DNA of 37,295 bases from Nanobdellota archaeon. Lineage in GTDB: Archaea > Nanobdellota > Nanobdellia > Pacearchaeales > GW2011-AR1. Location: NCBI GenBank assembly GCA_034716495.1, contig JAYEHV010000029.1:1-37295 (forward strand), written 5' to 3'. The notes beneath the pieces were generated by a model. That model was not told the origin of the DNA, searched no databases, and saw only the letters and a program-made list of their open reading frames with translations. Positions 3,832 through 27,495 of this stretch are shown piece after piece. The stretch's first letter is position 1; every line of letters starts with the position of its first letter. A program made the position numbers and the translations under genes.

Positions 3832-4365
3832 TTACAATTCACTCCTAACCTCACTATTTACAAAATTAATTAAGGTATTTTGTTGGTTTACCTTTTCATA
3901 ATGATATCCACATAATTTTAGACCGTTCTTAGTCCCTTTCACGGGTGTTTTATTACATCTTGTTCTTTTTGTTTCTCTAAATTGACAGCGTTCAATTAAG
4001 GGCCTAAAATTTCTTTTCGAGATTTTAATCTTGTTTCTAAGAATCTTGAGGATTTTACCTAATTGTTTCTTGCATTGCTTCTGATTCCCTAAGTCTAAAA
4101 ATGTTTTTGCAGAATCAGTAAGAGCCTCTAATAATGTTAAACTATTCCAGCCTAATGCAGGTGTTCGCTTCGGTTTCCAAGTAATTGTTTGATAATTTTC
4201 AATCCATAATACAAGTTCCTTAGCTTTTATAATCTCCCGATTTTGCTCAATAGGGAATACTAAATCACATTTCCCGCATTTATAATAATAATTCTGAGAT
4301 AAATCGTTTGTAATGAAAATTGAGCTACAGAAAGGACATTTGATTACTTGATAAGATTTTTTTAT
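3832..4365 (-). CDS. Zinc-ribbon protein with apparent non-canonical ATA start (absent from ORF track)
   Basis: The frame is open from 4386 to 3832, checked triplet by triplet. No in-frame ATG/GTG/TTG occurs until 38 codons before the stop. ATA at 4365-4363 lies 7 nt after AGGTGA (4378-4373). Encodes (I)KKSYQVIKCPFCSS...YKCGKC... plus a C-terminal RCQF..RCNK..LCGYH cluster. The stop sits 2 nt before the next ATG (3829). Confidence 0.55.
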   Translation of the reverse strand: MKKSYQVIKCPFCSSIFITNDLSQNYYYKCGKCDLVFPIEQNREIIKAKELVLWIENYQTITWKPKRTPALGWNSLTLLEALTDSAKTFLDLGNQKQCKKQLGKILKILRNKIKISKRNFRPLIERCQFRETKRTRCNKTPVKGTKNGLKLCGYHYEKVNQQNTLINFVNSEVRSEL

Positions 4366-4765: not shown

Positions 4766-5515
4766 TTACCATTCATCATCAAAATCATCATCAAAATCCG
4801 AGTCTTCCACCCACGGGGCCAACCATTGATGGTATTCAATACCCTTATCTACATATTCTATATGTAAAGGATGATCATTTTTCGTATATAGGGTAAAAGG
4901 TTTTACGAATAGATTTTCTGTGTTCTTTACAACTGATTTAAGAAAGGTCAGATTATATGCACACTGTCCTTGTTTCTCAACCATCCGTTCGGTCTTAGTA
5001 AATTCTCCTATTTGTCCTACGGAATAGTATTGTATTCCTATTGAATCATATTGGATAAAGAGGATGTCAGAATAAATCTTCGCCTTCTCAATGATCTTTT
5101 CTAATTTCCCTCTGTTAATCTCATATTTCTTATCATAATTAATTTTCCGCAAGTTAACGGTTGGAAGATGCTCAAGTTCCAAATCTAAAAGATATAATGT
5201 GTAGGATTCTCCATTTGAAGATAACTTTATGTAATCTTTCTTATCTCTGAGTTTTTTCTCAAGCATTACAGTGGTATCTTCGAGTTTATCTAAGATTTTA
5301 TTTAAATCATCTACATTCAGAGGAAATACTGTATTAATTGGTTCAGTAAGAATATCCTCCAACTTAATGTTTATAGTAGTAACCCTACTTGGATCCATTC
5401 CATCTATTATAATATCGCGCCCCTTGCATTGAATTTCAATCTCATCCATAAAATCCCCTAAAAAAATCATGACTTGTTTGAACAAGGGGTAATTCTTTAT
5501 TTCACTTTTTTCCAT
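4766..5515 (-). CDS. pcn: PCNA-like DNA sliding clamp, divergent paralogue 1
   Basis: 249 aa. IIIDGMDPSRVTTINIKL matches the PCNA ..amDssHvalv.l.L segment. Colinear with the 12988..13818 paralogue: SVGQIGEF/SSGQIGEM, AYNLTFLKSVVK/AYSLLFLKSILK, DHPLHIEY/DHPLKMIF, LAPW/LAPR. Acidic tail DSDFDDDFDDEW. Confidence 0.7.
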   Translation of the reverse strand: MEKSEIKNYPLFKQVMIFLGDFMDEIEIQCKGRDIIIDGMDPSRVTTINIKLEDILTEPINTVFPLNVDDLNKILDKLEDTTVMLEKKLRDKKDYIKLSSNGESYTLYLLDLELEHLPTVNLRKINYDKKYEINRGKLEKIIEKAKIYSDILFIQYDSIGIQYYSVGQIGEFTKTERMVEKQGQCAYNLTFLKSVVKNTENLFVKPFTLYTKNDHPLHIEYVDKGIEYHQWLAPWVEDSDFDDDFDDEW

Positions 5516-9123: not shown

Positions 9124-9444
9124 TTACACCTTTATTAGTTCTATTTTGTGTTGTAAGAGATTGAGATGGTCGTAAATCTCCCTTCCTTTTTCGGTAAGTC
9201 TGATTAATTTCTTTTGTTGATTAGGATGAATATAGATTTCAATCATTCTGTAATCTAAGAGAAATTGTTTTGCTCTGCGGAAAGAATTATAATAACTACC
9301 AGTATTCATGATTTTGTTAAAAGTATGATATTCAATACCCTCTGAAATGCTTGTATATTCACCTAGGATATTCATAGTATCCCAGAATCCCTTATTGCGA
9401 AAGATCTCCCGTAATTTTGCTAATTTCTCAAATATAGCTTTCAT
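9124..9444 (-). CDS. Winged-helix DNA-binding protein; start refined to ATG at 9444
   Basis: The track ORF (to 9534) would overlap the upstream gene by 107 nt. An internal ATG (MKAIFEKL) overlaps it by 17 nt. SFRRAKQFLLDYRMIEIYIHPNQQKKLIRLTEKGREIYDHL is a typical recognition-helix/wing/LTEKG pattern of MarR/PadR-like wHTH proteins. Confidence 0.55.
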   Translation of the reverse strand: MKAIFEKLAKLREIFRNKGFWDTMNILGEYTSISEGIEYHTFNKIMNTGSYYNSFRRAKQFLLDYRMIEIYIHPNQQKKLIRLTEKGREIYDHLNLLQHKIELIKV

Positions 9445-9757
9445 TACTAAGCCACTCCTTTCTTTGTTTCTTTGATTCCTCTTTAAAATTGGACATGACT
9501 TCAGGGTCTCGTACCCATCCTTTTCCATTTCCATTATTAGTCTTTTTCCTTTGGATTTGGCTATAATCTAAAGAATATTCTCCTTTACTTATTCTCAGAT
9601 ATTCGTGAAAGAGGATAAATCGAAAGCCTTCGCCTCGACTTGAAAAAAAACCTAATTCTTTTAGGCCATCAATTAAATCCCGTTGTTCATCGGTAATACT
9701 TATAGAGGCTATTTCAAATCCCGCCTTATCATTCATAATAGCTATAAGTTCAGGCAT
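9428..9757 (-). CDS. RHH-like DNA-binding protein (possible upstream extension to ATA at 9883)
   Basis: 109 aa from the ATG. ASISITDEQRDLIDGLKELGFFSSRGEGFRFIL fits a strand-helix-helix pattern. The frame stays open for 44 more codons upstream, to 9889. Confidence 0.5.
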   Translation of the reverse strand: MPELIAIMNDKAGFEIASISITDEQRDLIDGLKELGFFSSRGEGFRFILFHEYLRISKGEYSLDYSQIQRKKTNNGNGKGWVRDPEVMSNFKEESKKQRKEWLSNESYI

Positions 9758-9879
9758 ATTCTCTTCAAAAAAAATGTTTATTACCGCTCTTAACTGGGCG
9801 GACTTGACATTATTCGCCGCAGCATCCTCAGAGGTTAGCTCTGAGATTATACAACTAGGACTACGATAGGTAAATCTCT

Positions 9880-10134
9880 TTATAGTGGATCAACTCCGTA
9901 ATTTAGTAAAATATCGAAACATTCGCCTAATTGATCTTGAGTTAAGATTTCTAAACTCTTGTAGAGACTGGGAGGAATACCCATAGCAAAAACCTTAATC
10001 CAACTAAGAAGATATCTCTTAAAGGTCTGAAACTCCGCCTCCGATAGCGGTATTCCCTTCAGATACTTCAAGACAATAGGTTTTAAAACCTTGTCTCTCA
10101 TCCAAAAATCAAACTCTCCATCAAACTTTACCAT
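9880..10134 (-). CDS. Hypothetical protein
   Basis: 84 aa, in-array. Confidence 0.55.
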   Translation of the reverse strand: MVKFDGEFDFWMRDKVLKPIVLKYLKGIPLSEAEFQTFKRYLLSWIKVFAMGIPPSLYKSLEILTQDQLGECFDILLNYGVDPL

Positions 10135-11786: not shown

Positions 11787-12035
11787 TTATATTTCTGGAA
11801 TAATACCATTAGTAGAACAGTTTTCATGCGGTCGCTTGTAAGCAGTATCCATTTCCTTAATTGCCTTTGTTTTATCTGCTTGATAATCCCGAATGAATTT
11901 AGTTATCGCGCATTTTAACAGATGCTCAGCAGTAGTATCCATCTCTTTTACTATTATCTTAAGCTCTTCATTTCTTTCTGTAGGCAAATTAAAATGCTTT
12001 GAAACTGTTCTTTTTTCTTGGTCTAAATCTAACAT
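11787..12035 (-). CDS. RHH (CopG-like) DNA-binding protein
   Basis: 82 aa. RTVSKHFNLPTERNEELKIIVKEMDTTAEHLLKCAITKFIRDY fits the strand-helix-helix pattern. Third RHH gene in a row. Confidence 0.5.
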   Translation of the reverse strand: MLDLDQEKRTVSKHFNLPTERNEELKIIVKEMDTTAEHLLKCAITKFIRDYQADKTKAIKEMDTAYKRPHENCSTNGIIPEI

Positions 12036-12104
12036 AGTTTTTTTCTCTTTTTTTTTGATTATTTTATTTGTTTTAAAAAAATATATTTGGATAACCCAAA
12101 GACC

Positions 12105-12395
12105 CTACTCCAGTCTCTGGATTATTTTAAAAGTTTTAAAACCCCGCACGGGTTCATTGTTTTCATCGTGTTTCTCAATAGGAACACGCACAAAGTTCTT
12201 ATCATCAAAGACTTCTTCTAGTTCCGGCTCATTGAACTTTTGCAGGTTCTTTGCCATCCTTAGTTCCTTTAAGAGAAATTCGCGTGTTGCCACACGTACA
12301 AGCTCACTTCGACTTGGGAATAGCCCGCCCTCACCTATAAGCTTGTTGATTGCTTCTATGTATGATTCGGGGACATTACAAGTGACTATTTTTAT
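12105..12395 (-). CDS. RHH (CopG-family) protein, paralogue B, apparent ATA start
   Basis: The track ORF starts at GTG 12293, which would remove the beta-strand and helix 1. The open frame upstream reads (I)KIVTCNVPESYIEAINKLIGEGGLFPSRSELVRVATREFLLKEL, colinear with paralogue A. There is no ATG/GTG/TTG between 12294 and 12455. ATA at 12395-12393 lies 7 nt after GAGGTG (12408-12403). Confidence 0.6.
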   Translation of the reverse strand: MKIVTCNVPESYIEAINKLIGEGGLFPSRSELVRVATREFLLKELRMAKNLQKFNEPELEEVFDDKNFVRVPIEKHDENNEPVRGFKTFKIIQRLE

Positions 12396-12426
12396 GCTAA
12401 TACACCTCTTTTTATTTTCCTCATTT

Positions 12427-12639
12427 TTATTTTCTCTCCTTTGTATTGCTTCTTGCTAACATTTTAAAATTGGATTCGTCAAGGTCCTGATAGAATTGAA
12501 GTTCCTTTGAGAGAAAGTCCCTTAAAGCGATCCTAATAGCTTCGCTTCTACTTGGATATATGCCAAGGTCATTGAGGACTTGGATTGCTGCCAAATATTT
12601 TTCAGGTAAATTAATTGTGATGATTTTAATTTTTCCCAC
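12427..12639 (-). CDS. RHH (CopG-family) protein, paralogue A
   Basis: 70 aa. KIKIITINLPEKYLAAIQVLNDLGIYPSRSEAIRIALRDFLSKEL carries the canonical CopG/Arc-type SRSEaIR signature. Confidence 0.75.
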   Translation of the reverse strand: MGKIKIITINLPEKYLAAIQVLNDLGIYPSRSEAIRIALRDFLSKELQFYQDLDESNFKMLARSNTKERK

Positions 12640-12987: not shown

Positions 12988-13818
12988 TTAGAACTCATCT
13001 AACTCCTCATCATTGACGAAATCAGCATCTTCGCATCTGGGCGCCAAAAAGTAGCTTAACTCAGACCCTTCAAGAATACTAAATATCATTTTGAGAGGGT
13101 GGTCTGTTTTGAGAGAGACTTCTAATCTTTCGGTAATGGAGGATATTTTTAGAATTGATTTTAGAAACAAAAGTGAATAAGCTCCATTACTGATTCCTGT
13201 AATTTCGGATTCAATTAAATCCTCTATACTCAAATCATATTCCATCTCCCCTATCTGTCCGGAAGAACTAAAGAAGATTCCATTTTCTTCATCCGCCTTC
13301 ATGTTTAGAATCTCAGAATAGATCTCAGCGTCTTTTAAAGCTTCAGAGATTATATCTGTATCCATATCAAAGGTGCTGGGATATTCTATAGATAGTAAAT
13401 TCTCCATTGGAATATCTTCTTGCTCTGTGTCTATCGTTGCTAAACTAAAGGTTCGCTTTCTGGTTTGACCTTCTTGACAGAACTGCATACGGATTTTAGA
13501 ATCTTTTTTATAGTATCCAAACTCTAAAATATCTTTATTATTACTCCTCTTCAAAATCTTAGTAAGATCGTCTAAGTTAAGGCCTATTTTCTCACTATTT
13601 TTGCATGTATAGACATCGAAATTCTCTTGTTTCATGGTAAGTCGGATTAAACAGATGCGGCTTGGGTCCATCGCATTAATTTGCAATTCATCAGAAGAAA
13701 CGTCAATAATACATTCATCTATGATTGAATTGAGTGTTTCTACAATCACGCTGAAGATCTTGCTATTCTCGAGTTTGAAATAAAATATAGGTTCGACCAT
13801 TATTCTATAATCCTCCAC
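12988..13818 (-). CDS. pcn: PCNA-like DNA sliding clamp, paralogue 2
   Basis: 276 aa. ELQINAMDPSRICLIRLTM, SSGQIGEM, TDHPLKMIF and YFLAPRCEDAD follow the canonical PCNA layout. Acidic tail DADFVNDEELDEF. The internal ATG at 13800 (MVEPIFYFKL, TAATG overlap with the upstream stop) may be the true start. Confidence 0.8.
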   Translation of the reverse strand: MEDYRIMVEPIFYFKLENSKIFSVIVETLNSIIDECIIDVSSDELQINAMDPSRICLIRLTMKQENFDVYTCKNSEKIGLNLDDLTKILKRSNNKDILEFGYYKKDSKIRMQFCQEGQTRKRTFSLATIDTEQEDIPMENLLSIEYPSTFDMDTDIISEALKDAEIYSEILNMKADEENGIFFSSSGQIGEMEYDLSIEDLIESEITGISNGAYSLLFLKSILKISSITERLEVSLKTDHPLKMIFSILEGSELSYFLAPRCEDADFVNDEELDEF

Positions 13819-14803: not shown

Positions 14804-15730
14804 TTAATTCTCCTCGTAGAAATTAGTTAGAACTTTATAGGTTAGGTGATCAAATACTTTATATACCCGATCTTCAAAGATTTCTTTAGCAATTTTATAT
14901 TCTTCAGGATATTTTTCTTTATTAGAGCTATAAAAACCATAATCATCAAAATTTAGCTCTTTTAGATCTCCATTTGTTAGAGTTAAAGCGCGTTTTAACA
15001 CAAAATCTAAAAACTCTCCCAATCCCTCATTAACTTTCTTTTGCTTGGATTGATTGAACGAATGACATTTCTCAATTAAACCAAATGCTTTTTGAAAAGC
15101 GCCACTCCAACCACCACCGGTCTTAAGGCTTCCGCCCCATACAGAAGGTAAATGCTTAAGGATTGCTTGATTCTCTTCTTTTTGTCGATTTTGCGCAAGA
15201 TAAATCATTACCTTTAGCTTTAATAAAAATGCTAAAGGAATATCTGAGGATTGCTTTAAGTAGGCTTTTATTCCGTCTAATTCTGTTATATCTGTTAATG
15301 CTTTTTTTTCTTCAGGAACAAATTTCTTTTTTTGATGAGTGGTCATCAATCTTTTTGATGAGTGGTCATCAATCTGCTTTATTGGTTTTTTTGTTTTAGG
15401 TTTAATTTTCACTGCGCCCTTCTTTATTTCAAGGTTTTCTTGGTTAGGTTGCTCTTGCTTTTTTTGATGAGTCCTCGGTTTTTTTGATGAGTGGTCATCA
15501 ATCTTAGGATTATTTTCTACAAAGGTAGTTAATGCCCTACCCTCGCGCTCTTGAGTTATTATGACTAATTTTAGTTCTTCTAATGGTTTAATATATCTAG
15601 TGCCTAAATTACCTAAACCGATCTTGGTTTCTTTGGATAATTCTGTTAAAGAAAGAGCTTTAGAGTGCTTTTTTAAAGCATCTATTATCTTTTGCTCATT
15701 TTTTTTTAATTTTCGTCCTGAACTATTCAA
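14804..15730 (-). CDS. wHTH protein with lysine-rich repeat linker (hosts the palindromic DNA repeats) and a GGGWSGA-motif C-terminal domain
   Basis: 308 aa. The N-terminal IIDALKKHSKALSLTELSKETKIGLGNLGTRYIKPLEELKLVII is a wHTH. The linker repeats IDDHSSKKPRTHQKK and IDDHSSKRLMTTHQKKK. KTGGGWSGAFQKAFGLIEK lies at 15068-15124. Confidence 0.65.
   Translation of the reverse strand: MNSSGRKLKKNEQKIIDALKKHSKALSLTELSKETKIGLGNLGTRYIKPLEELKLVIITQEREGRALTTFVENNPKIDDHSSKKPRTHQKKQEQPNQENLEIKKGAVKIKPKTKKPIKQIDDHSSKRLMTTHQKKKFVPEEKKALTDITELDGIKAYLKQSSDIPLAFLLKLKVMIYLAQNRQKEENQAILKHLPSVWGGSLKTGGGWSGAFQKAFGLIEKCHSFNQSKQKKVNEGLGEFLDFVLKRALTLTNGDLKELNFDDYGFYSSNKEKYPEEYKIAKEIFEDRVYKVFDHLTYKVLTNFYEEN
15332..15372. 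repeat. Two tandem copies (23-bp period) of the perfect 18-bp palindrome TTGATGAGTGGTCATCAA
   Basis: Copies at 15332-15349 and 15355-15372. Each is a 7-bp inverted repeat (TTGATGA/TCATCAA) around GTGG, with conserved flanks ttt...tct. Confidence 0.9.
15464..15501. repeat. Half-site TTGATGAGT (15464-15472) plus a third full copy of the palindrome (15484-15501)
   Basis: Exact third copy of TTGATGAGTGGTCATCAA, about 130 bp from the tandem pair. The left half-arm recurs 20 bp upstream of it. Confidence 0.85.
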
Positions 15731-15935: not shown

Positions 15936-16120
15936 AGTAAATCCACTTTTTTTCCGTTTTTTTAGGAGTTTTTTTTGTTGTAATTTTAGTTTATTTTTTA
16001 ACTATTTAAACTCTTCCATCGAAACTCCATCCATGCTACAAAAAGTACGGAGGATCAAAGATAAATAAGAAAAAAGACAGTAATATTTTATAAAAACAAA
16101 TCTTAAAAGAAGTATAAGGC

Positions 16121-16147
16121 TTAATTAATTACATATATTAATTAATT
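16121..16147. promoter_or_regulatory. Twin TTAATTAATT boxes (17-bp spacing) flanking a TATA-like ACATATA; candidate operator/promoter of the plus-strand RHH gene
   Basis: TTAATTAATT occurs at 16121-16130 and 16138-16147. Each contains the palindrome TTAATTAA. They lie 38-64 nt upstream of the ATG at 16185. Chance occurrence in AT-rich DNA is not excluded. Confidence 0.3.
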
Positions 16148-16184
16148 CATTAAATCAAATACTCTAATGTAAAAAGGTAATTTC

Positions 16185-16358
16185 ATGCCGGATATTGAAG
16201 ATGAAGAGAAAAAGGAAAGAGAGCTAAGAGTTTTACTAAAGAATAAATATTTTGCTAAACTTGAAATTATTAAGGATTTTTTAGGGATTGAAAATAACGC
16301 TGATATTATTCGATATTTAATTACTAAAGAATCAAGAGATATTGAAAAAACGTCATAA
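16185..16358 (+). CDS. Small RHH-like protein (57 aa); the only credible plus-strand gene
   Basis: MPDIEDEEKKERELRVLLKNKYFAKLEIIKDFLGIENNADIIRYLITKESRDIEKTS. AAGGT lies 6 nt upstream of the ATG. Strand-helix-helix pattern similar to 15723..15935. Below the track cutoff. Confidence 0.45.
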   Translation: MPDIEDEEKKERELRVLLKNKYFAKLEIIKDFLGIENNADIIRYLITKESRDIEKTS

Positions 16359-16501
16359 TTCGATAAATTTCAAAATGGATTATAAAACAAAATTAGGTAT
16401 TTTAAGGTAAGCCGACAATAATGGATCTTAAAAAATTATTACGAGTTGAAACTATTGAAATCTTAAGAAATAAAGATAATTTTGAAAAAAGAAAATCGTA
16501 A

Positions 16502-16696
16502 TTATAGTTGAAGTCCTATTGAGCTATAAAGCTCTTTTTGGTATTCTACTAAATTACGTAAATCTTGAATAATAAGCGCTCCAAGCTCTATATTTCTGTC
16601 TTTAGCAACTCTTTCTAACTTATTATGTAGTGTAATCGGAATATCTAAACATACCGGTTCCGTTTGCTTCTTTTGTACTGACTCGTTTTTGATTAT
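16502..16696 (-). CDS. RHH protein (64 aa) with no canonical start codon anywhere in frame; apparent ATA start
   Basis: The frame is open from the TAA at 16702-16700 to the TAA at 16504-16502 and contains no in-frame ATG/GTG/TTG (checked triplet by triplet). ATA at 16696-16694 lies 6 nt after GGGGA (16707-16703). Encodes (I)IKNESVQKKQTEPVCLDIPITLHNKLERVAKDRNIELGALIIQDLRNLVEYQKELYSSIGLQL, a clear strand-helix-helix pattern. Confidence 0.5.
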   Translation of the reverse strand: MIKNESVQKKQTEPVCLDIPITLHNKLERVAKDRNIELGALIIQDLRNLVEYQKELYSSIGLQL

Positions 16697-16747
16697 TTTT
16701 TATCCCCAATCCCTATTTTTGGTTTTAGATAATTTTGATAAAAATTG

Positions 16748-16759
16748 GTATTATATATA
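16748..16759 (-). promoter_or_regulatory. TATA-like box (GTATATATAATA on minus strand) upstream of the ATA-start RHH gene
   Basis: Lies 52-63 nt upstream of the proposed start. The position is compatible with an archaeal TATA box plus a short SD-containing leader. Sequence-only guess. Confidence 0.25.
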
Positions 16760-16874
16760 CTTTCAGCTTACTTTAGCTTCTGGGGGGCAGAGAGGGGTGA
16801 GTAAAAGTAAAAATAAAACTTTTTTATTCCAAAATTGAGTAGTTTTTGGGCCAGAAACATGAGAGATTTTAATT

Positions 16875-16988
16875 AAAAAAGGAGAGATCGGGAGGAGATT
16901 AGTGGAAAACTTGAGGATGTGAATATATAGTATGGCAGACTATTATGACAGCTCGATTTTATTATTTTGCTCTCCTCCTTGCGATCTC
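16875..16988 (-). terminator. Long-range hairpin (8-bp + 6-bp stems) followed by T6, just downstream of the right array
   Basis: GGAGGAGA (16891-16898) pairs with TCTCCTCC (16971-16978). GAGATC (16884-16889) pairs with GATCTC (16983-16988). On the minus-strand transcript the 3' arm is followed by CTCC and then TTTTTT (16880-16875). This is the only G+C-rich patch in the window. Confidence 0.35.
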
Positions 16989-16995
16989 ATGTCTT

Positions 16996-18711
16996 TTATG
17001 ATAATACTATTAACCTATCTATTACGGAATACAGGAAGAACTCAGTTAATTTACGATAAAATGCATATCCAAACATATTTATTGTCCATGTCTCATATTG
17101 GCTTTTATGATTGATTAAGTCAATTACTCCCGCCTCACGACCGTACCAATATCGAAACCAACGCCATTTATAGATATACACTCTATCCATGTCAAAATGC
17201 CTACATATATCCAGATCTAATTTATATTCTTTATTTTTCACATAGTCGGTATCTCTAAACTCATAATCAAATGTACCGATAAACATAAATCTCTTTGCCC
17301 TTGGTACATTAACCTCTGTGCTTTCTCTTTCAAATTTAACTAAAGAATAAAAATCTTGGATCGGTTGAGTAGGTTGATTAGCGCTATATAATAATTCTGA
17401 CTCATCAGAAATATAGTCATATTCTTGTAGATTACCCAAGAGTAAGGTATAAAGATTTAGAGCAGGGGAGGTTCTATAAACCATTGAAACAGAATAATCC
17501 CAGTTCAAATCGAGCTGATAGATATTTTGAGTTAGGAGATTATAATCTCTATCTCCATCCAATTGATCTTGTATTGAAGGTAATTTTATAATTCCTGCCT
17601 CTTTGCCATCGTCTTGAATGGCTTTGATAAAAAGACTTAAATTGGTTCTTGCAATCTCTATCTCCTCATCTGACGTAAGCGCAGAGAACAAATATAGCCC
17701 AGAGGATGCCTCCTCCTCTAAGTCATTCACTAAATTAATTGGTGTTTCCGCATCTACTTCGATAAAATCGACATAGGACCAAATACCATTCGCAATCCCC
17801 CACGCACGGATCTTTAGATAATATTGGTGAAAATATTGCGCATTATGAATACTGCAATAAAACTCTCCATCGCCTCCAATAGAAATCCCAAAATTAACGG
17901 AGTGATTTATGAGGTAATTCATTCTGTTTAAAAGCTTACTTGTGTAAGAAGAGCTATCAATATTTCTGGCGCGAAATACCATTGAATATGCAATATTATT
18001 TGCAGACCATCTATCCAATGTAGCGTTATCTGTTGGACATATATCAGGGGCCCCCCAAAATACTATTTGTGGATTGTTTTTAGGGGCAATAACAATTACT
18101 CGAATAGGTAAAATCATTAGGAAACTGCTTATAATAATACTTAGAATTAATCCTAATCGAAGATAAGGGTGGAGCTTAATCTTACGCTCGTTTCTTATCC
18201 TAATTAACTTAAATGAAAGAAGAGTTGCGTAAAGCGAGGGAATAAATAGGATGGAGAACTCTATGACTGTGAGGAAAGCGGGTTTTTGATGAAAGATCAA
18301 GCAAAACCCTGCAAATACTAACGCATTAAACAGGAGTAAAATAAGTTTTATCGTGCCTTTACCGTAAAACTTCGCTATAAATATAGAAGATACTATAGTT
18401 GCTACAAATAATCCTAAATATATTAATTCGATTAATGACGTAGGTAATGTTAATAAGAAAAATCCTAATACTACTCCAGATATGCTAATAAAGATTAGAG
18501 AAAGATACACTCTGAAGGAGCGTTTAGTTAATATGAAATAGATAAAAATAATCAATACCCCTCCATAAATAATCTCAACGAGGATTAAATCAATAATAGA
18601 GAACTCAGGAGAAAAAACAAAAAAAAGGGAGAAAATACTAATTTGAACTATTGCGAAGAAATATCCTGTAAGTAATGTTAGAATTATTTTATTCACTAAT
18701 AGTTTATTCAT
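16996..18711 (-). CDS. Polytopic membrane protein with a large C-terminal soluble domain, function unknown
   Basis: 571 aa. The first ~215 aa form about 8 hydrophobic helices (e.g. ILTLLTGYFFAIVQISIFSLFFVF, GGVLIIFIYFIL). The remaining ~350 aa are Trp/Tyr/Asp-rich and non-hydrophobic. Confidence 0.7.
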   Translation of the reverse strand: MNKLLVNKIILTLLTGYFFAIVQISIFSLFFVFSPEFSIIDLILVEIIYGGVLIIFIYFILTKRSFRVYLSLIFISISGVVLGFFLLTLPTSLIELIYLGLFVATIVSSIFIAKFYGKGTIKLILLLFNALVFAGFCLIFHQKPAFLTVIEFSILFIPSLYATLLSFKLIRIRNERKIKLHPYLRLGLILSIIISSFLMILPIRVIVIAPKNNPQIVFWGAPDICPTDNATLDRWSANNIAYSMVFRARNIDSSSYTSKLLNRMNYLINHSVNFGISIGGDGEFYCSIHNAQYFHQYYLKIRAWGIANGIWSYVDFIEVDAETPINLVNDLEEEASSGLYLFSALTSDEEIEIARTNLSLFIKAIQDDGKEAGIIKLPSIQDQLDGDRDYNLLTQNIYQLDLNWDYSVSMVYRTSPALNLYTLLLGNLQEYDYISDESELLYSANQPTQPIQDFYSLVKFERESTEVNVPRAKRFMFIGTFDYEFRDTDYVKNKEYKLDLDICRHFDMDRVYIYKWRWFRYWYGREAGVIDLINHKSQYETWTINMFGYAFYRKLTEFFLYSVIDRLIVLS

Positions 18712-23900: not shown

Positions 23901-24103
23901 ATTAAAGTTTTTGCTTTTCCCTCTTTCACTTGTTTTTTTGCTTTCTCGGAGAGTTCGGGTTTAACATGGACCTTTTTCTTATGGGAGCTTACAGTTTCAA
24001 CCTTACCCCCTTTAACGCGCTTATATTCATCTATCTGGCGCTCTTGGGTAGGATACCATTTAAGAAGGGAAAGTTGAGTTTTTTCTTTGGTTTTTTTTGC
24101 CAC
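20957..24103 (-). CDS. SF2 DEAH-box helicase (ResIII/XPB-UvsW-like core) with long N-terminal extension, shared N-terminal module and C-terminal HeH/Rho_N-like motif
   Basis: 1048 aa, GTG start. Q motif YNYQKQAV. Motif I VSPTGTGKT. Motif II IIQDEAHHI. Motif III GLTATPSR. Motif V LSEGFDLP. Motif VI QTAGRAMR. C-terminal LHELTRNQIYKVAQKEKIVGRHRMKKGELINAL resembles Rho_N/SAP helix-extended-helix. N-terminal YKRVKGGKVETVSSHKKKVHV...EGKAKTLI is the shared module. Confidence 0.85.
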   Translation of the reverse strand: MAKKTKEKTQLSLLKWYPTQERQIDEYKRVKGGKVETVSSHKKKVHVKPELSEKAKKQVKEGKAKTLITEDEVKEIIKEDIEEAKEDSIEEIQKRIQEEVLDPELFGISQKEIQRIIIEEKLVDSEVYKQWITKLSAIDDLQKRYEWSEDNSEKEKIQKEIEDERAEANRLYSIFRVLVEDEILAENEGWHDDFYGELSEADRFNFKTLEQLKKEEGAVETIENPFFEEFFKGKEDPKSATIMVKLSENGDKILLSWDNIGEGGNYKVRGANYETFLQVVRDKHGGRWVQGSQFVIDADDLESVIDEFKDRNDRYGREDLLYSIVGQNDTKKEWLEKANIQKEIVLHSDSNAFIFEVHGNNVVLKSGSKNPGDKRKDQELAMDVLNTAYKRTMSKRGKKDEVYAAVEINDKGEYVMPIGLLSKAYWLLKRSYNFDVAVADTRERSPVSNPELKGVDLYNYQKQAVLESLIEGQGLIVSPTGTGKTMMAAGVISGFIKGAEKYEEKTGKKVDVDSLFLVHRGTLRDQAKEAFDKFLPEDVNIGLLDSENFTPSWTDEADINVGTIQGMHSAIKKIEEGKTLSEKDKICLKILRESEIIIQDEAHHITARSFDSVYDENKTIHKFGLTATPSRDAQDDILRVMKIGDKRIPITYKQAQDRGMLMKPNVVVIPIPKRKDLESEIDYIMDRDGIKNKFTAKVRAQVEENEARNDLIIDHANRMHTAGKKTIIFTKSLNHANDLKELLEKEYPNTKPVLLAGKKRDASGKLKKMKKSDIETNKKMLESGKTNIAIGTGSLLSEGFDLPALDVILGAGASQEYSPISVMQTAGRAMRVSVGKEQPIIVEYKDDFGGFAERILKRRKAYNEYNAFNFTLQDEYPQFYGAQGDRECPTKKDRMAWVKQFIKRSEGTDAEKFQTSEFYQHKRARGLVKGSAPKAVQKESKATIRTLPHTEKLHELTRNQIYKVAQKEKIVGRHRMKKGELINALKYQQNWAWDNKDTDIALKIAGTDEKPKDIFNKAMQLSITERNLNPSQALQLLESEYKKKRVEF

Positions 24104-24213: not shown

Positions 24214-25647
24214 CTATTTAAAATTTGATAGTTTTTTATATTTTGATTGTTCTTTCGCACTTAGGCCTAAATCCATTGCTTTTTCATTTACTCCTGCAAA
24301 TCCTAAGATTCCCTTTTGACTTTGACTTGTCTTAAAGTTCTCTAATGACTTATCTACCACTTTTGACTTATCTACAAAATCTTTAAGTTCAAATGGTTTG
24401 ATTTCTTCTTTTTTACTTTTTTTCATCCCTAAGAACTTATCTAAATCTGTTGTTGGAGATAATTTTAAATGGGATAAGTTATATTCATCGATCCAGGAAT
24501 TATAGACATTAGTTTTCTTTCTGACAAGAGCATCATATTTCTTAATTAATTCTTCGTCTGCGACATCTGAAAGTTCTATTTTGTTGAGTAGTTTCGCCTC
24601 TTGTTCTTTTAATGTAGTATATTGGTGTAGTTTATGAACTGAAAGTTCCCGCCGCCCTCCAATTAGTTTATCGGGATGAGGATCGTCTAATAGTTCTACT
24701 CTAAATTTAGCTTTATCCCAATTTGAAGGGTCTAAGGAATAAGTTCTTACCCCTGTTTCTGCTTCAAATAAAAGCCTACCCGCAGAGTATTTCAATAGTA
24801 ATAGAGGATCTGCAATTAAATTCTTGTATCTTTTATCATTCTTGAAGTAATTATTTATGATCTTTTTGGATAATTGATAGGTAGATATATCAGTTTTAAG
24901 GAATCTTGCTAATTGCTCCGGGTCTTCTATATTCATAATAATTGTTTGAGCGGTCGTTGGAGTTAGGATAAATTCTGGTTTCATTACCTCTAAGTTAGAA
25001 ATATCACCTCTACTAGGTAAGGGAAACATATGATCGGGGTGTGTATGACCAAATAACTCAAAATCATTGAGTTTTAAAGTGTAATCTTTCGCACCTTTCA
25101 TAATGTATAACCGTTCCGGATTGGAATCTTCTCGTTCAAAATCAATAGCAAAACTATATTCATACGGACTAAATCTGGATATCTCCCTAATTCCTTTTAG
25201 CATGTTATAGGGGATCTCCTTTACCATCGTTTGTTGTGGTTTGCTTCTATTCGCAATATTTAGGTCAAATGTGCCCTTTTTTATATAGATTGATTGTTCT
25301 ATAACATCAAGAACCTTTTCTACTTTGTCGTAAGATACACCGTACTCATGATGACCGAGAGGATAATCTTGCATGATGTCTATGATTTTTTTCTCTTGCC
25401 ATACATTAGTCACCACGCCCTCTATACCAGATAGTTTATATTTAACGCGATCTCCATACTCAAACATTTTAGGTTGAATTAATTGTTTGCTGGATCCTGC
25501 TATTCGATTTTTATTTCTTATTTCTCTTGCACTTCTTTCTCGATAACGATAAGTAACCTCATGAGCAGGAACCACCACTACTTTCCCGTTCTTTTTGGTA
25601 TAGGTATATCCTTCTCTTCGCTTCTTTTTATCGTAATAATTAGCCAT
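24214..25647 (-). CDS. JAB/MPN-like metallopeptidase-motif protein with the shared N-terminal module
   Basis: 477 aa. GHTHPDHMFPLPSRGDI (25003-25047) fits the JAMM signature HxH-x(7-8)-S-xx-D, with 8 spacer residues instead of the canonical 7. Candidate upstream Glu in AIDFEREDS. N-terminus KKRREGYTYTKKNGKVVVVPAHEVTYRY...AGSSKQLI. Confidence 0.5.
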   Translation of the reverse strand: MANYYDKKKRREGYTYTKKNGKVVVVPAHEVTYRYRERSAREIRNKNRIAGSSKQLIQPKMFEYGDRVKYKLSGIEGVVTNVWQEKKIIDIMQDYPLGHHEYGVSYDKVEKVLDVIEQSIYIKKGTFDLNIANRSKPQQTMVKEIPYNMLKGIREISRFSPYEYSFAIDFEREDSNPERLYIMKGAKDYTLKLNDFELFGHTHPDHMFPLPSRGDISNLEVMKPEFILTPTTAQTIIMNIEDPEQLARFLKTDISTYQLSKKIINNYFKNDKRYKNLIADPLLLLKYSAGRLLFEAETGVRTYSLDPSNWDKAKFRVELLDDPHPDKLIGGRRELSVHKLHQYTTLKEQEAKLLNKIELSDVADEELIKKYDALVRKKTNVYNSWIDEYNLSHLKLSPTTDLDKFLGMKKSKKEEIKPFELKDFVDKSKVVDKSLENFKTSQSQKGILGFAGVNEKAMDLGLSAKEQSKYKKLSNFK

Positions 25648-25650
25648 TTT

Positions 25651-26871
25651 TTATATCACCAATTTTTTAGGTTTTGGAGGAAGATATTTCCTTACTTCGT
25701 CCTCCGTATAAGTATAATCTTTCAAACACCAAATCCCGCGCTCTATATTTTCAAATAACTCATCCTTATAGCTTGAAAGAGCAGAGCGTATTTTTTTTGC
25801 TTCTAATCCCGTAATTGCCACGATTTTTTGTATATTTACTACACCTTCTTGATGTAAAGCATTAAATATTTTGTCTTTATTCTGTAATGGTTGTAGGCTT
25901 ACTTCCTTTCGAGCAAACTCCCAGTCTAATTGTTCAATCGCTTTTACTAAATCGGTCCGCCTAACTTTTATTGTATAATCTTGCTCTATCTGATTTGCAA
26001 ACGGATATAAGAATCCTTTTAATTGTCCTCTGGTGAAATCACTCACAGAGCATTTTAATCTTTCCAACTCTGTTCGTAATGCATCTTTAAGAAGGCCAAG
26101 TAAAAAGGCTTCATCAATTGACCTATCAATCACTACATCATATTTTACCTGTTCTTTAGAGGAGTAGGGAACTTCAATCGTGGCCGTTTGACCGGTCTTC
26201 GCTTTAGCTAAACAAAATCTTAGAGCGTCAAAATTAAACCCTACTTGACCCTCCCATGTCGCTAATCGTAATAATTCTGATTGTTCTGGAGTGAAAATCT
26301 TATGAAACCAATTTAGATCATAATAACTTGTATAGACTTGTAATATTGAATTTTCTCTAAGAGTCGCATCTAAGCGCGAATATACTTGAACAGCAAAAAT
26401 AAAAAATATTATTCCATTTTTCTCATAAAGATCCTCTAATACATGCCTCGAAACACAGAATTGTTGTGTAATTTCGACATTATCCCCTGACATAGACCTT
26501 CGTGAATCTGTACCTTCACCAATAGCATCATCTACTACAATAACTAATACATGCTTACCCTCAAAATATTCGCTATATCGCTTATCGCCAATCACGCGCG
26601 GATCATTGGTTGCAACTACACTAATTAATCCTTCATAGTCAGGAATAGAGCGGAGTAATTCTACTAAATATCGGATTAAAACAGACTTGCCCGTCCCCTG
26701 CCCTCCTATAAAGGACATTGCTTTTAGAACCCATTCGTGAGGAGTATTCTCACATTTGAGAATATGTAATAATAATTCTTTGGGGTTTAATACCTCGTAA
26801 TCCTTCCCATTAACATTGATATTATGAGTGTTTAAAAATGGATTTTTACCTACTTGAACGAATCCTGGTAT
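25651..26871 (-). CDS. P-loop NTPase with C-terminal wHTH; N-terminus extended to an apparent ATA start
   Basis: Walker A GGQGTGKS and Walker B HVLVIVVDDA. C-terminal NIQKIVAITGLEAKKIRSALSSY is wHTH-like. The track start (26718) lies 5 residues before the P-loop. The frame is open for 52 more codons up to the TAA at 26877-26875, with no ATG/GTG/TTG. ATA at 26871-26869 is the second codon after that stop and lies 6 nt after GAGTGA. Confidence 0.65.
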   Translation of the reverse strand: MPGFVQVGKNPFLNTHNINVNGKDYEVLNPKELLLHILKCENTPHEWVLKAMSFIGGQGTGKSVLIRYLVELLRSIPDYEGLISVVATNDPRVIGDKRYSEYFEGKHVLVIVVDDAIGEGTDSRRSMSGDNVEITQQFCVSRHVLEDLYEKNGIIFFIFAVQVYSRLDATLRENSILQVYTSYYDLNWFHKIFTPEQSELLRLATWEGQVGFNFDALRFCLAKAKTGQTATIEVPYSSKEQVKYDVVIDRSIDEAFLLGLLKDALRTELERLKCSVSDFTRGQLKGFLYPFANQIEQDYTIKVRRTDLVKAIEQLDWEFARKEVSLQPLQNKDKIFNALHQEGVVNIQKIVAITGLEAKKIRSALSSYKDELFENIERGIWCLKDYTYTEDEVRKYLPPKPKKLVI

Positions 26872-26877
26872 TTTTTA

Positions 26878-27495
26878 TCACTCTCTAACTTTTTGTTTTT
26901 TTTTATCAAAAATACCATGTTTCTTTTTTAATAGAGGATCATTTGGCATAAGCGTATCTTCGTCAAGTTTGCTCATTGCATCTGCATCTGCACCAACTTG
27001 TGCGTTATAAGGGATTCCATATTTTCCACAGTTCTTAAGAAATGTATTTCTTCTTTTCTCAGCTTTATTTATGAGATCTTGCTTTCCAATATTAACCGAA
27101 TGTAATTGATATATTAATTTTTTTAGCTCGATTAGTTGGTCCTTTAACGGTTCAAAACCTTCCTTTCTAAATTGGATGAATTTTGGAGAATTTTCACCAA
27201 GTTTTTCTTTTGCTTGTGTAATATTTGTATAATCTATATCATCTAGTTTTCTTTCTAATTGTGAGATTGGTTTGAAAACTTCACATGTAGTATTATGGCA
27301 AATCTTTAAATCAACAATAGACCTTTTCAGTAATTTGAATCTATTTAATATATCTCGATCTTCATACCATTTATCTTCTATCTCGTTCCAAATATCACCT
27401 CGCGGAATTAATTCCTCGATCGTTTCTGATAATTCTTCAATCTTTTCCAATGCTTGTTTGAGTTGTTTTGCTAATACTTCAGGATCTTCTTCCAT
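26878..27495 (-). CDS. Coiled-coil protein, function unknown
   Basis: 205 aa. Heptad-like Glu/Lys/Leu-rich sequence. Confidence 0.6.
   Translation of the reverse strand: MEEDPEVLAKQLKQALEKIEELSETIEELIPRGDIWNEIEDKWYEDRDILNRFKLLKRSIVDLKICHNTTCEVFKPISQLERKLDDIDYTNITQAKEKLGENSPKFIQFRKEGFEPLKDQLIELKKLIYQLHSVNIGKQDLINKAEKRRNTFLKNCGKYGIPYNAQVGADADAMSKLDEDTLMPNDPLLKKKHGIFDKKKQKVRE

Follow-up and report, generated by a model that had tools for sequence, protein, structure and literature searches.

A probable AUA start codon in a conserved P-loop NTPase gene on a putative element of a DPANN-type archaeon

Introduction

Translation initiation at AUH codons (H being A, C or U) behind strong Shine-Dalgarno (SD) sequences is already known. 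In Staphylococcus aureus, infC, ccpN and citZ start at AUA and cvfC1 at AUU, all of them with extended SDs, and the ccpN, citZ and cvfC1 starts give a reporter output of ~10-30% of the AUG level (PMC13009471). Escherichia coli infC and pcnB start at AUU according to work cited in the same paper, and most of the bacterial genes with AUH starts encode regulators of low abundance, among them a zinc-finger protein and transcription factors (PMC13009471). Here we describe a P-loop nucleoside triphosphatase (NTPase) gene whose conserved reading frame extends upstream of its annotated ATG to an ATA codon. The gene lies on a 37,295-bp NCBI contig (JAYEHV010000029.1) binned as 'Nanoarchaeota archaeon', and this contig, at its full length, is called the window below.

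The window cases resemble the bacterial ones in having a near-cognate codon at the true N-terminus and a strong, well-spaced SD, and in having been missed or truncated by automatic annotation. Three of the four window genes concerned encode small DNA-binding-type folds (ribbon-helix-helix (RHH), zinc ribbon and RHH-like), a further likeness to the bacterial AUH regulators. The density differs: bacterial genomes of 2,500-4,500 genes contain one to four such genes, whereas the window has four among ~45 on a single element. The setting also differs, being archaeal in the window to judge by its PCNA genes and its Nanoarchaeota bin, with initiation involving the archaeal initiation factors aIF1, aIF1A and aIF2. 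Finally, the bacterial starts rest on experiment, those in the window on sequence comparison.

For archaea the published evidence is more slender, with two precedents that are closer in setting. In the fusellovirus SSV10, CUG (C34), AUU (A49) and AUA (D60) starts were annotated with guidance from homology (PMC6080066). SSV10 and the window thus share an archaeal virus or virus-like setting in which homology-guided annotation needs non-canonical starts, AUA among them. The SSV10 open reading frames (ORFs) are short, however, and were annotated by judgement with no stated alignment to orthologue N-termini, whereas each window case has an SD and an orthologue Met at the same codon; moreover, crenarchaeal mRNAs are often leaderless, unlike the window cases with their SDs. 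Ribosome profiling of Haloferax volcanii placed ~30% of putative alternative start sites at near-cognate codons, which were set aside as possible false positives (PMC7261190). Archaeal ribosomes have thus been found at near-cognate codons, but at alternative sites, whereas the ATA in the window would be the sole start of a conserved protein.

Results

The NTPase reading frame and its deposited annotation

On the minus strand, the junction between the NTPase gene and the gene for a 205-aa protein upstream of it reads ...AGTTAGAGAG TGA TAA AAA ATA CCA GGA TTC GTT... (Table 1). The TGA (26880-26878) is the stop codon of the 205-aa gene and lies within a GAGTGA (26883-26878). It is followed by TAA (26877-26875), AAA (26874-26872) and ATA (26871-26869), both stops being in the NTPase frame. 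The ATA is the second codon past the TAA, 6 nt beyond GAGTGA and 5 nt beyond the GTGAT core. From 26874 the frame is open to the stop at 25651. It contains no ATG, GTG or TTG before the ATG at 26718, which lies 52 codons past the TAA and 51 past the ATA. Between the in-frame stop and the conserved coding sequence there are only AAA and ATA, of which ATA is the sole near-cognate codon. At the composition of this strand (A 0.375, T 0.297, G 0.188, C 0.139), the chance that 52 random codons contain no stop is 0.0105.

The coordinates given in the first-pass annotation of this junction were all correct when read directly and by script on the minus strand, as was its statement that no ATG, GTG or TTG separates the stop from ATG 26718. 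Its expectation of a truncated ATPase next to a 159-nt gap was borne out by the public record: the short form, which reads MSFIGGQGTGKS, is found at NCBI as the 355-aa entry MEA3248444.1 ('hypothetical protein U9Q73_01935 [Nanoarchaeota archaeon]'), and the gap (26877-26719) is 159 nt long. Its count of five residues ahead of the first Walker A glycine was one too many, as the short form has the first Gly of GxxxxGKS at position 5, after four residues.

That the 205-aa gene and the NTPase gene share one reading frame would suit an N-terminus made by readthrough from the former. Two successive stops, TGA and TAA, separate the genes, however, and in relatives from other metagenomes (contigs with L numbers) the NTPase is free-standing with its own Met, and the gene upstream of it in L001, L003 and L004 is not the one found in the window. 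The homologue of the 205-aa gene in L001 is likewise a separate gene, not adjacent to the NTPase gene. With two stops in a row and orthologues that stand free, we rejected readthrough or fusion with the 205-aa gene.

Homologues place the NTPase N-terminus at the ATA codon

A search of a large protein collection with the long form returned 11 homologues, which were aligned with the window protein (12 sequences; residues are numbered from the ATA codon). Nine of the 11 are 401-485 aa long, the others being P0011 (334 aa) and P0012 (362 aa). The same proportion, 9/11, start with M-P/T/A-G-Y-I/V-x-I-G, residue for residue over I-P-G-F-V-Q-V-G in the window. Of the 51 residues upstream of the annotated start, two (E46 and K50) are invariant, and conservation reaches at least 90% at L28, P30, L35, K39, P44, W47 and D48. 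The column of Met52, by comparison, is occupied by I, L, V or F in the homologues, with no conserved Met.

The two short-looking homologues proved to be gene-caller artefacts. At the L001 locus, the closest relative, an ATG at 9170 opens MPSFLNVGKEH and the caller took a downstream ATG. On L016, the contig of P0012, the sequence is GAGGT-tataaaaaa-ATT CCT GCT TAC, with the ATT at 937 opening IPAYITIDK and 35 codons free of any canonical start. Read at the DNA level, the codon in the ATA column is ATG in L001, L004, L005, L006, L013, L014 and L020, and GTG in L017; the L013, L014, L017 and L020 loci came from a metagenome scan.

An AlphaFold2 model built from the alignment (mean predicted local distance difference test score 75.8) has a disordered tip at residues 1-13, a hairpin at 15-28 (strands E15-20 and E23-28), a helix at 30-38 and strand beta-1 at 48-55. 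Beta-1 (VLKAMSFI) leads into the P-loop and is followed by a helix at 62-75. In the model, the annotated start, Met52, thus falls at position 5 of the first core strand. The first-pass annotation had proposed that the frame upstream of the ATG codes for protein ending in a strand that leads into the P-loop, and both the modelled beta-1 and the conserved residues agree with this. It had also called for an alignment with homologues; this showed that they do carry ~50 residues ahead of the Walker A motif and that the 51 upstream residues are conserved, and not that the family begins a few residues before the P-loop with an unconserved stretch upstream. Because the homologues start with Met at the ATA column and keep the next 50 residues, the alignment settles the question of the N-terminus: it indicates that the long form is the real one.

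Ribosome-binding sites and the proposed initiation event

SDs were scored, with an aligned spacer, against GGAGGTGATC, which is complementary to the 3' end of 16S rRNA. At the canonical starts of the element, SD matches mostly lie at an aligned spacer of 5-7 nt, for example GGTGAT-atataaaaa...ATG (477-aa gene), AGGTGAT-aaaat-ATG (571-aa gene) and AGGTGA-gaaaaa-ATG (175-aa gene). The NTPase gene has GTGAT-aaaaa-ATA, with the same aligned spacer as canonical starts of the element and a layout like that of the 477-aa gene (GGTGAT, 7 nt, ATG) and the 571-aa gene (AGGTGAT, 5 nt, ATG), while no SD match was found upstream of the annotated ATG 26718, nor upstream of ATG 9757 of a second gene described below.

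In the mechanism that we propose, the small ribosomal subunit would be placed by pairing of GUGAU in the mRNA with the 3' end of 16S rRNA. The subunit would probably come from the upstream cistron, whose UGA stop is 6 nt before the AUA. Initiator Met-tRNA would then pair with AUA despite a mismatch at the third position, and the product would be a Met-initiated protein of 406 aa, probably made at a fraction of the AUG rate. The ATA probably arose from an ancestral ATG by a single G-to-A transition that the lineage tolerates or exploits. On the sequence evidence we hold with good confidence that the NTPase is a 406-residue protein produced by SD-directed near-cognate initiation at AUA 26871, probably attenuated; AUA as the codon used, the insertion of Met and the attenuation are what we infer from that evidence.

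Several points weigh on the other side. To our knowledge, AUA has not been confirmed by experiment as a start codon in any archaeon. The SD core of the NTPase gene is only 5 nt (GTGAT), with mismatches on either side, and the source of the contig is a binned metagenome assembly. In extracts of Sulfolobus, aIF1 discriminates against non-canonical starts, according to work cited in PMC8211752. Moreover, whereas bacterial AUH codons are conserved among species, the start of the NTPase orthologues varies: at least 12 have ATG, one has GTG, one has ATT (L016) and the window alone has ATA. The ATA could therefore be a recent, mildly deleterious substitution and not a selected feature, and its variation among the orthologues gives no support to selection for weak initiation of the NTPase.

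The genetic code is standard at internal ATA codons

In several mitochondrial codes ATA serves for both Met and initiation, and a reassignment of ATA to Met would offer another route to a Met-initiated long form. We aligned 162 internal ATA codons to the relatives and found I at 51%, V at 18.5%, L at 8% and M at 4.9% of the aligned positions, the last figure including the start-codon column itself. This distribution was indistinguishable from that of ATT and ATC. Internal ATA thus aligns as Ile and the code is not reassigned. A scan of the contig for tRNA genes, Rfam families and terminal repeats returned none, so that the contig has no tRNA gene of its own to support a reassignment. The codon-by-codon comparison led us to reject ATA = Met, and together with readthrough from the 205-aa gene we rate it as extremely improbable.

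Three further genes in the window probably start at ATA

The first-pass annotation had counted the NTPase as the fourth instance of an SD-spacer-ATA arrangement. An independent scan of all stop-to-stop frames for conserved coding sequence of more than 20 codons ahead of the first canonical start arrived at exactly that number, with ATA at 26871, 12395, 9883 and 4365 (Table 1). In each of them the ATA follows an SD match of 5 nt or more at an aligned spacer of 5-6 nt, the individual matches being 5, 6, 5 and 6 nt. Since ATA makes up 3% of sense codons, its presence at the SD-defined position in 4/4 start-less frames is not due to chance. These starts account for ~9% of the window genes, and each is backed by the N-termini of homologues, with the Met exactly at the ATA for the NTPase and RHH genes and within one codon of it for 9883 and 4365.

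The RHH protein has ~90 homologues, mostly of 95-101 aa with some longer, at identities of up to 81%; their first residues are MKIVTVNVPESY, aligned with IKIVTCNVPESY in the window. The NCBI form of this gene is 113 aa long and starts at a different ATA (12446), which has no SD and lies further upstream than the homologues reach. The 151-aa gene is deposited as MEA3248422.1, 109 aa, from ATG 9757. The 42 residues upstream of that ATG are conserved in homologues, with the motif P-x-C-L-I...S..LR..I..FF..N, and the Met of P0038 falls within one codon of ATA 9883. For the zinc-ribbon protein there are 24 homologues, among which the Met of P0015, P0017 and P0022 lies within one codon of ATA 4365. 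This gene appears to be unannotated in the public record, because the homologue search gave no 100% match.

Two of these ATA codons overlap the stop codon of an ORF upstream. A 10-codon upstream ORF (ATG 12424, MRKIKRGVLA; 12392-12424, minus strand) has a TAA that overlaps the ATA of the RHH gene as ATAA, and the 84-aa gene at 10134..9880 is joined to ATA 9883 by the same start/stop overlap (9880-9883, minus strand). By analogy with ATGA overlaps, the ATAA overlaps may reflect translational coupling.

Termination and reinitiation might accordingly be essential, with ribosomes that leave the upstream ORF restarting at a nearby AUA, a variant that is compatible with SD-directed initiation. A non-AUG codon would then be tolerated owing to the coupling, and not to SD-directed initiation on free mRNA. 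In keeping with this variant, every one of the four ATA codons is 0-14 nt away from the stop of an upstream ORF: 6 nt after the TGA for the NTPase, 14 nt after a TAA for 4365, and in overlap with the TAA of the 84-aa gene for 9883 and of the 10-codon ORF for 12395. In so tightly packed an array, however, nearly all genes are equally near an upstream stop, so that the feature does not discriminate; in addition, each ATA owns a well-spaced SD, which was enough in the bacterial precedents. We consider a strict need for reinitiation doubtful, and prefer SD-directed initiation at these codons.

Other candidates in the window were discarded. ATA 15742 has no spacer from AGAGG, and a TTG (15730) follows four codons on. 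ATA 8341 is merely the codon preceding ATG 8338. A plus-strand ATG ORF of 188 aa (11893-12459) opposite the RHH gene has no Pfam match, is absent from the protein collection and is probably a spurious antisense frame.

Table 1. Coordinates of the NTPase gene, its parts and other genes named in the text
Feature	Coordinates	Strand	Remarks
Full-length P-loop NTPase coding sequence, 406 aa + stop, from ATA	25651..26871	-	Frame open from 26874; homologues align from the ATA on
ATA, inferred initiation codon	26869..26871	-	Aligns with Met of 9/11 database homologues and with ATG, GTG or ATT at further loci
SD-like GAGTGAT, core GTGAT (5 nt)	26877..26883	-	Complementary to the 16S rRNA 3' end; overlaps TGA of upstream gene; then spacer AAAAA
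N-terminal segment absent from annotation, residues 2-51	26719..26868	-	Beta-hairpin, helix alpha-0 and first half of beta-1 (predicted); conserved
Annotated ATG = Met52, internal Met	26716..26718	-	No SD match upstream; within predicted beta-1
Walker A GGQGTGKS, residues 56-63	26683..26706	-	G56, Q58, G61 and K62 invariant
Walker B VLVIVVDD, residues 108-115	26527..26550	-	V108, D114 and D115 invariant
Upstream 205-aa gene	26878..27495	-	Same frame as NTPase; ends in double stop TGA TAA
96-aa RHH protein	12105..12395	-	GAGGTG-tattagc-ATA; Pfam RHH_1 22.1 bits
151-aa protein	9428..9883	-	GGAGtTGAT-ccact-ATA; ATA overlaps TAA of upstream 84-aa gene (ATAA)
177-aa zinc-ribbon protein	3832..4365	-	AGGTGA-aaaaaaa-ATA; 148 codons without canonical start
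PCNA-like gene 1	12988-13818	-	Clear PCNA_N + PCNA_C match
PCNA-like gene 2	4766-5515	-	PCNA_N score barely over threshold

Apparent ATA and ATT starts in relatives from other metagenomes

Five relatives have an apparent ATT or ATA start of their own (L016:937, L005:11729, L007:672, L009:932 and L012:~114), preceded in every case by a GGTG-type SD at a distance of 4-9 nt; the ATT of L016 belongs to the NTPase orthologue itself. Zinc-ribbon relatives in L007, L009 and L012 lack a canonical start ahead of the first CPxC knuckle, and read GAGGTG-tatataa-ATA, AAGGTG-taaaaac-ATT and GGAGAGGT-tttt-ATA, respectively. With TTG in L008 and L010, the zinc-ribbon starts overall are a mix of ATG, TTG, ATA and ATT. 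In L005, GGTG-ttattaa-ATT heads a 467-codon gene in which the called GTG start would cut a conserved basic N-terminal motif, and callers in these relatives picked downstream canonical codons that cut conserved motifs. Among the longer relatives L001, L004 and L006, no start-less frame of at least 25 codons was found on the coding strand, and ATA/ATT usage is therefore patchy.

These relatives bear on an error of sequencing, assembly or consensus, with ATG as the true codon, as might occur in a contig that is part of a metagenome-assembled genome. Such an error would have had to strike four times, each time at the third base of a start codon and nowhere else that is visible, at sites with no common sequence context except A-richness, while leaving a 2359-codon ORF intact. 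The ATA and ATT starts, moreover, recur on five contigs assembled independently (JGI, ENA and NCBI). This recurrence speaks against an artefact of assembly and points to a genuine property of the lineage or its hosts. We regard sequence error as very unlikely.

Loss of the start codon is a biological alternative, in which an ATG-to-ATA change inactivated the NTPase gene, or left it with only a truncated protein made from ATG 26718, the element being a copy that is decaying or defective. Most orthologues retain ATG, and the surroundings of the NTPase gene differ in gene order from those in the relatives. The gene order of the window is otherwise kept in L001 and L003-L006. The homologue of a 571-aa membrane protein (window 16996-18711, minus strand), however, lies immediately upstream of the NTPase gene in L003 and L004, with a 707-aa gene intervening in L001, and is ~8 kb off in the window. 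The junction that bears the ATA start is therefore a rearranged one. On the other hand, the 406-codon frame is intact and keeps all family-invariant residues, and ATG 26718 has no SD and lies within beta-1. Four starts would have to have been lost, yet no ORF in 37 kb has gained a stop or a frameshift, and independent relatives have ATT or ATA at orthologous starts. We judge start loss improbable, and initiation at AUA 26871 remains our preferred explanation.

The NTPase family

With Walker A and Walker B motifs on a beta1-P-loop-alpha1 core, the protein has the features of an ASCE (additional strand, catalytic E) P-loop NTPase. Matches to Pfam and PHROGs were all under threshold (Pfam AAA at 15 bits, with a cut-off of 21.2). 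A tblastn search of INPHARED phages gave no match, nor did GTDB genome_contigs and IMG/VR with the NTPase alignment as the query. Foldseek matched the model to AAA+ proteins of the ORC4/Cdc6/RuvB/RFC type, human ORC4 being the best (E 1.2e-5), and to the B204 packaging NTPase of Sulfolobus turreted icosahedral virus (STIV) and STIV2 at probability 1.00 and a target template-modelling score (TM-score) of ~0.5; query TM-scores were low for ORC-type and B204 matches alike, at 0.17-0.28. The ORC/Cdc6-type AAA+ proteins and the STIV B204-type NTPases resemble the window NTPase in their Walker A and B motifs, whereas the N-terminal hairpin and helix before beta-1 are specific to its family. Towards the C-terminus, the model has a helical region and then a small helix-strand domain resembling a winged helix.

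The element

The contig carries an array of genes almost wholly on one strand, most of them without database matches. Its products include a 2359-aa protein with a sialidase-like carbohydrate-binding domain, a ResIII/DEAD helicase, two PCNA-like proteins, an RNase T-type exonuclease, a radical-SAM-like protein and several winged helix-turn-helix (wHTH) and RHH regulators; none of the element's proteins showed a translation-factor domain. The host is probably archaeal, because PCNA genes are present, and the contig would be an element that resembles a virus or a plasmid and belongs to a DPANN-type archaeon.

Other features of the window were seen in passing. A stretch of ~1 kb without a long ORF (16000-16996) separates two minus-strand gene blocks and coincides with a local shift in AT and GC skew. 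Its one noted ORF, small and RHH-like, is on the plus strand (16185..16358), and the stretch may have a role in regulation or as a replication origin. Within a 308-aa wHTH gene, at 15307-15504, a 23-nt unit (TTTTGATGAGTGGTCATCAATCT) recurs, with three adjacent copies and another ~110 nt off, which encode the repeated peptide DDHSSK(K/R)...THQKK. The 477-aa protein (24214-25647, minus strand) has, by eye, a JAMM/MPN+-like metalloprotease motif (GHTHPDHMFPLPSRGD, = HxHx7Sx2D), and matched no Pfam or PHROG family at significance. Its N-terminus is one of several with a basic motif of ~50 residues, approximately K-K-G-F/Y-x3-R/K-x-G-K-x-V-x-V-x2-H, that is common to otherwise unrelated proteins. 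The motif is carried by the window genes starting at 24103, 25647 and 20306 on the minus strand (helicase, 477-aa and 471-aa proteins), by at least five L001 proteins and also in L005, and could be a shared tag for targeting, packaging or nucleic-acid binding.

Discussion

What is unusual here is not the AUH start behind a strong SD but its density and its archaeal setting. Four AUA starts among ~45 genes, together with the ATT and ATA starts of five relatives, far exceed the handful per genome seen in bacteria.

There are practical consequences for the public record: the NTPase is given as 355 and not 406 aa, the 151-aa protein is truncated to 109 aa, the RHH protein starts from the wrong ATA and the zinc-ribbon gene is apparently missing. 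Gene callers limited to ATG, GTG and TTG will repeat such errors across the family, as the mis-called starts in L001, L007, L009, L012 and L016 illustrate. This makes a case for homology-aware start prediction in metagenomic viromes.

We put forward, as a tentative proposal that we hold to be somewhat less likely than its opposite, that this family of DPANN-linked elements or viruses, or the translation apparatus of their hosts, has relaxed start-codon selection, with AUA and AUU serving as regular SD-dependent starts for ~5-10% of genes. If true, this would be one to two orders of magnitude above any characterised bacterium or archaeon, and it may serve to hold regulators and a core NTPase at low levels. 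If the initiation machinery of the host is responsible, these elements would offer a natural system in which to study the stringency of aIF1, aIF2 and initiator tRNA in reduced DPANN genomes.

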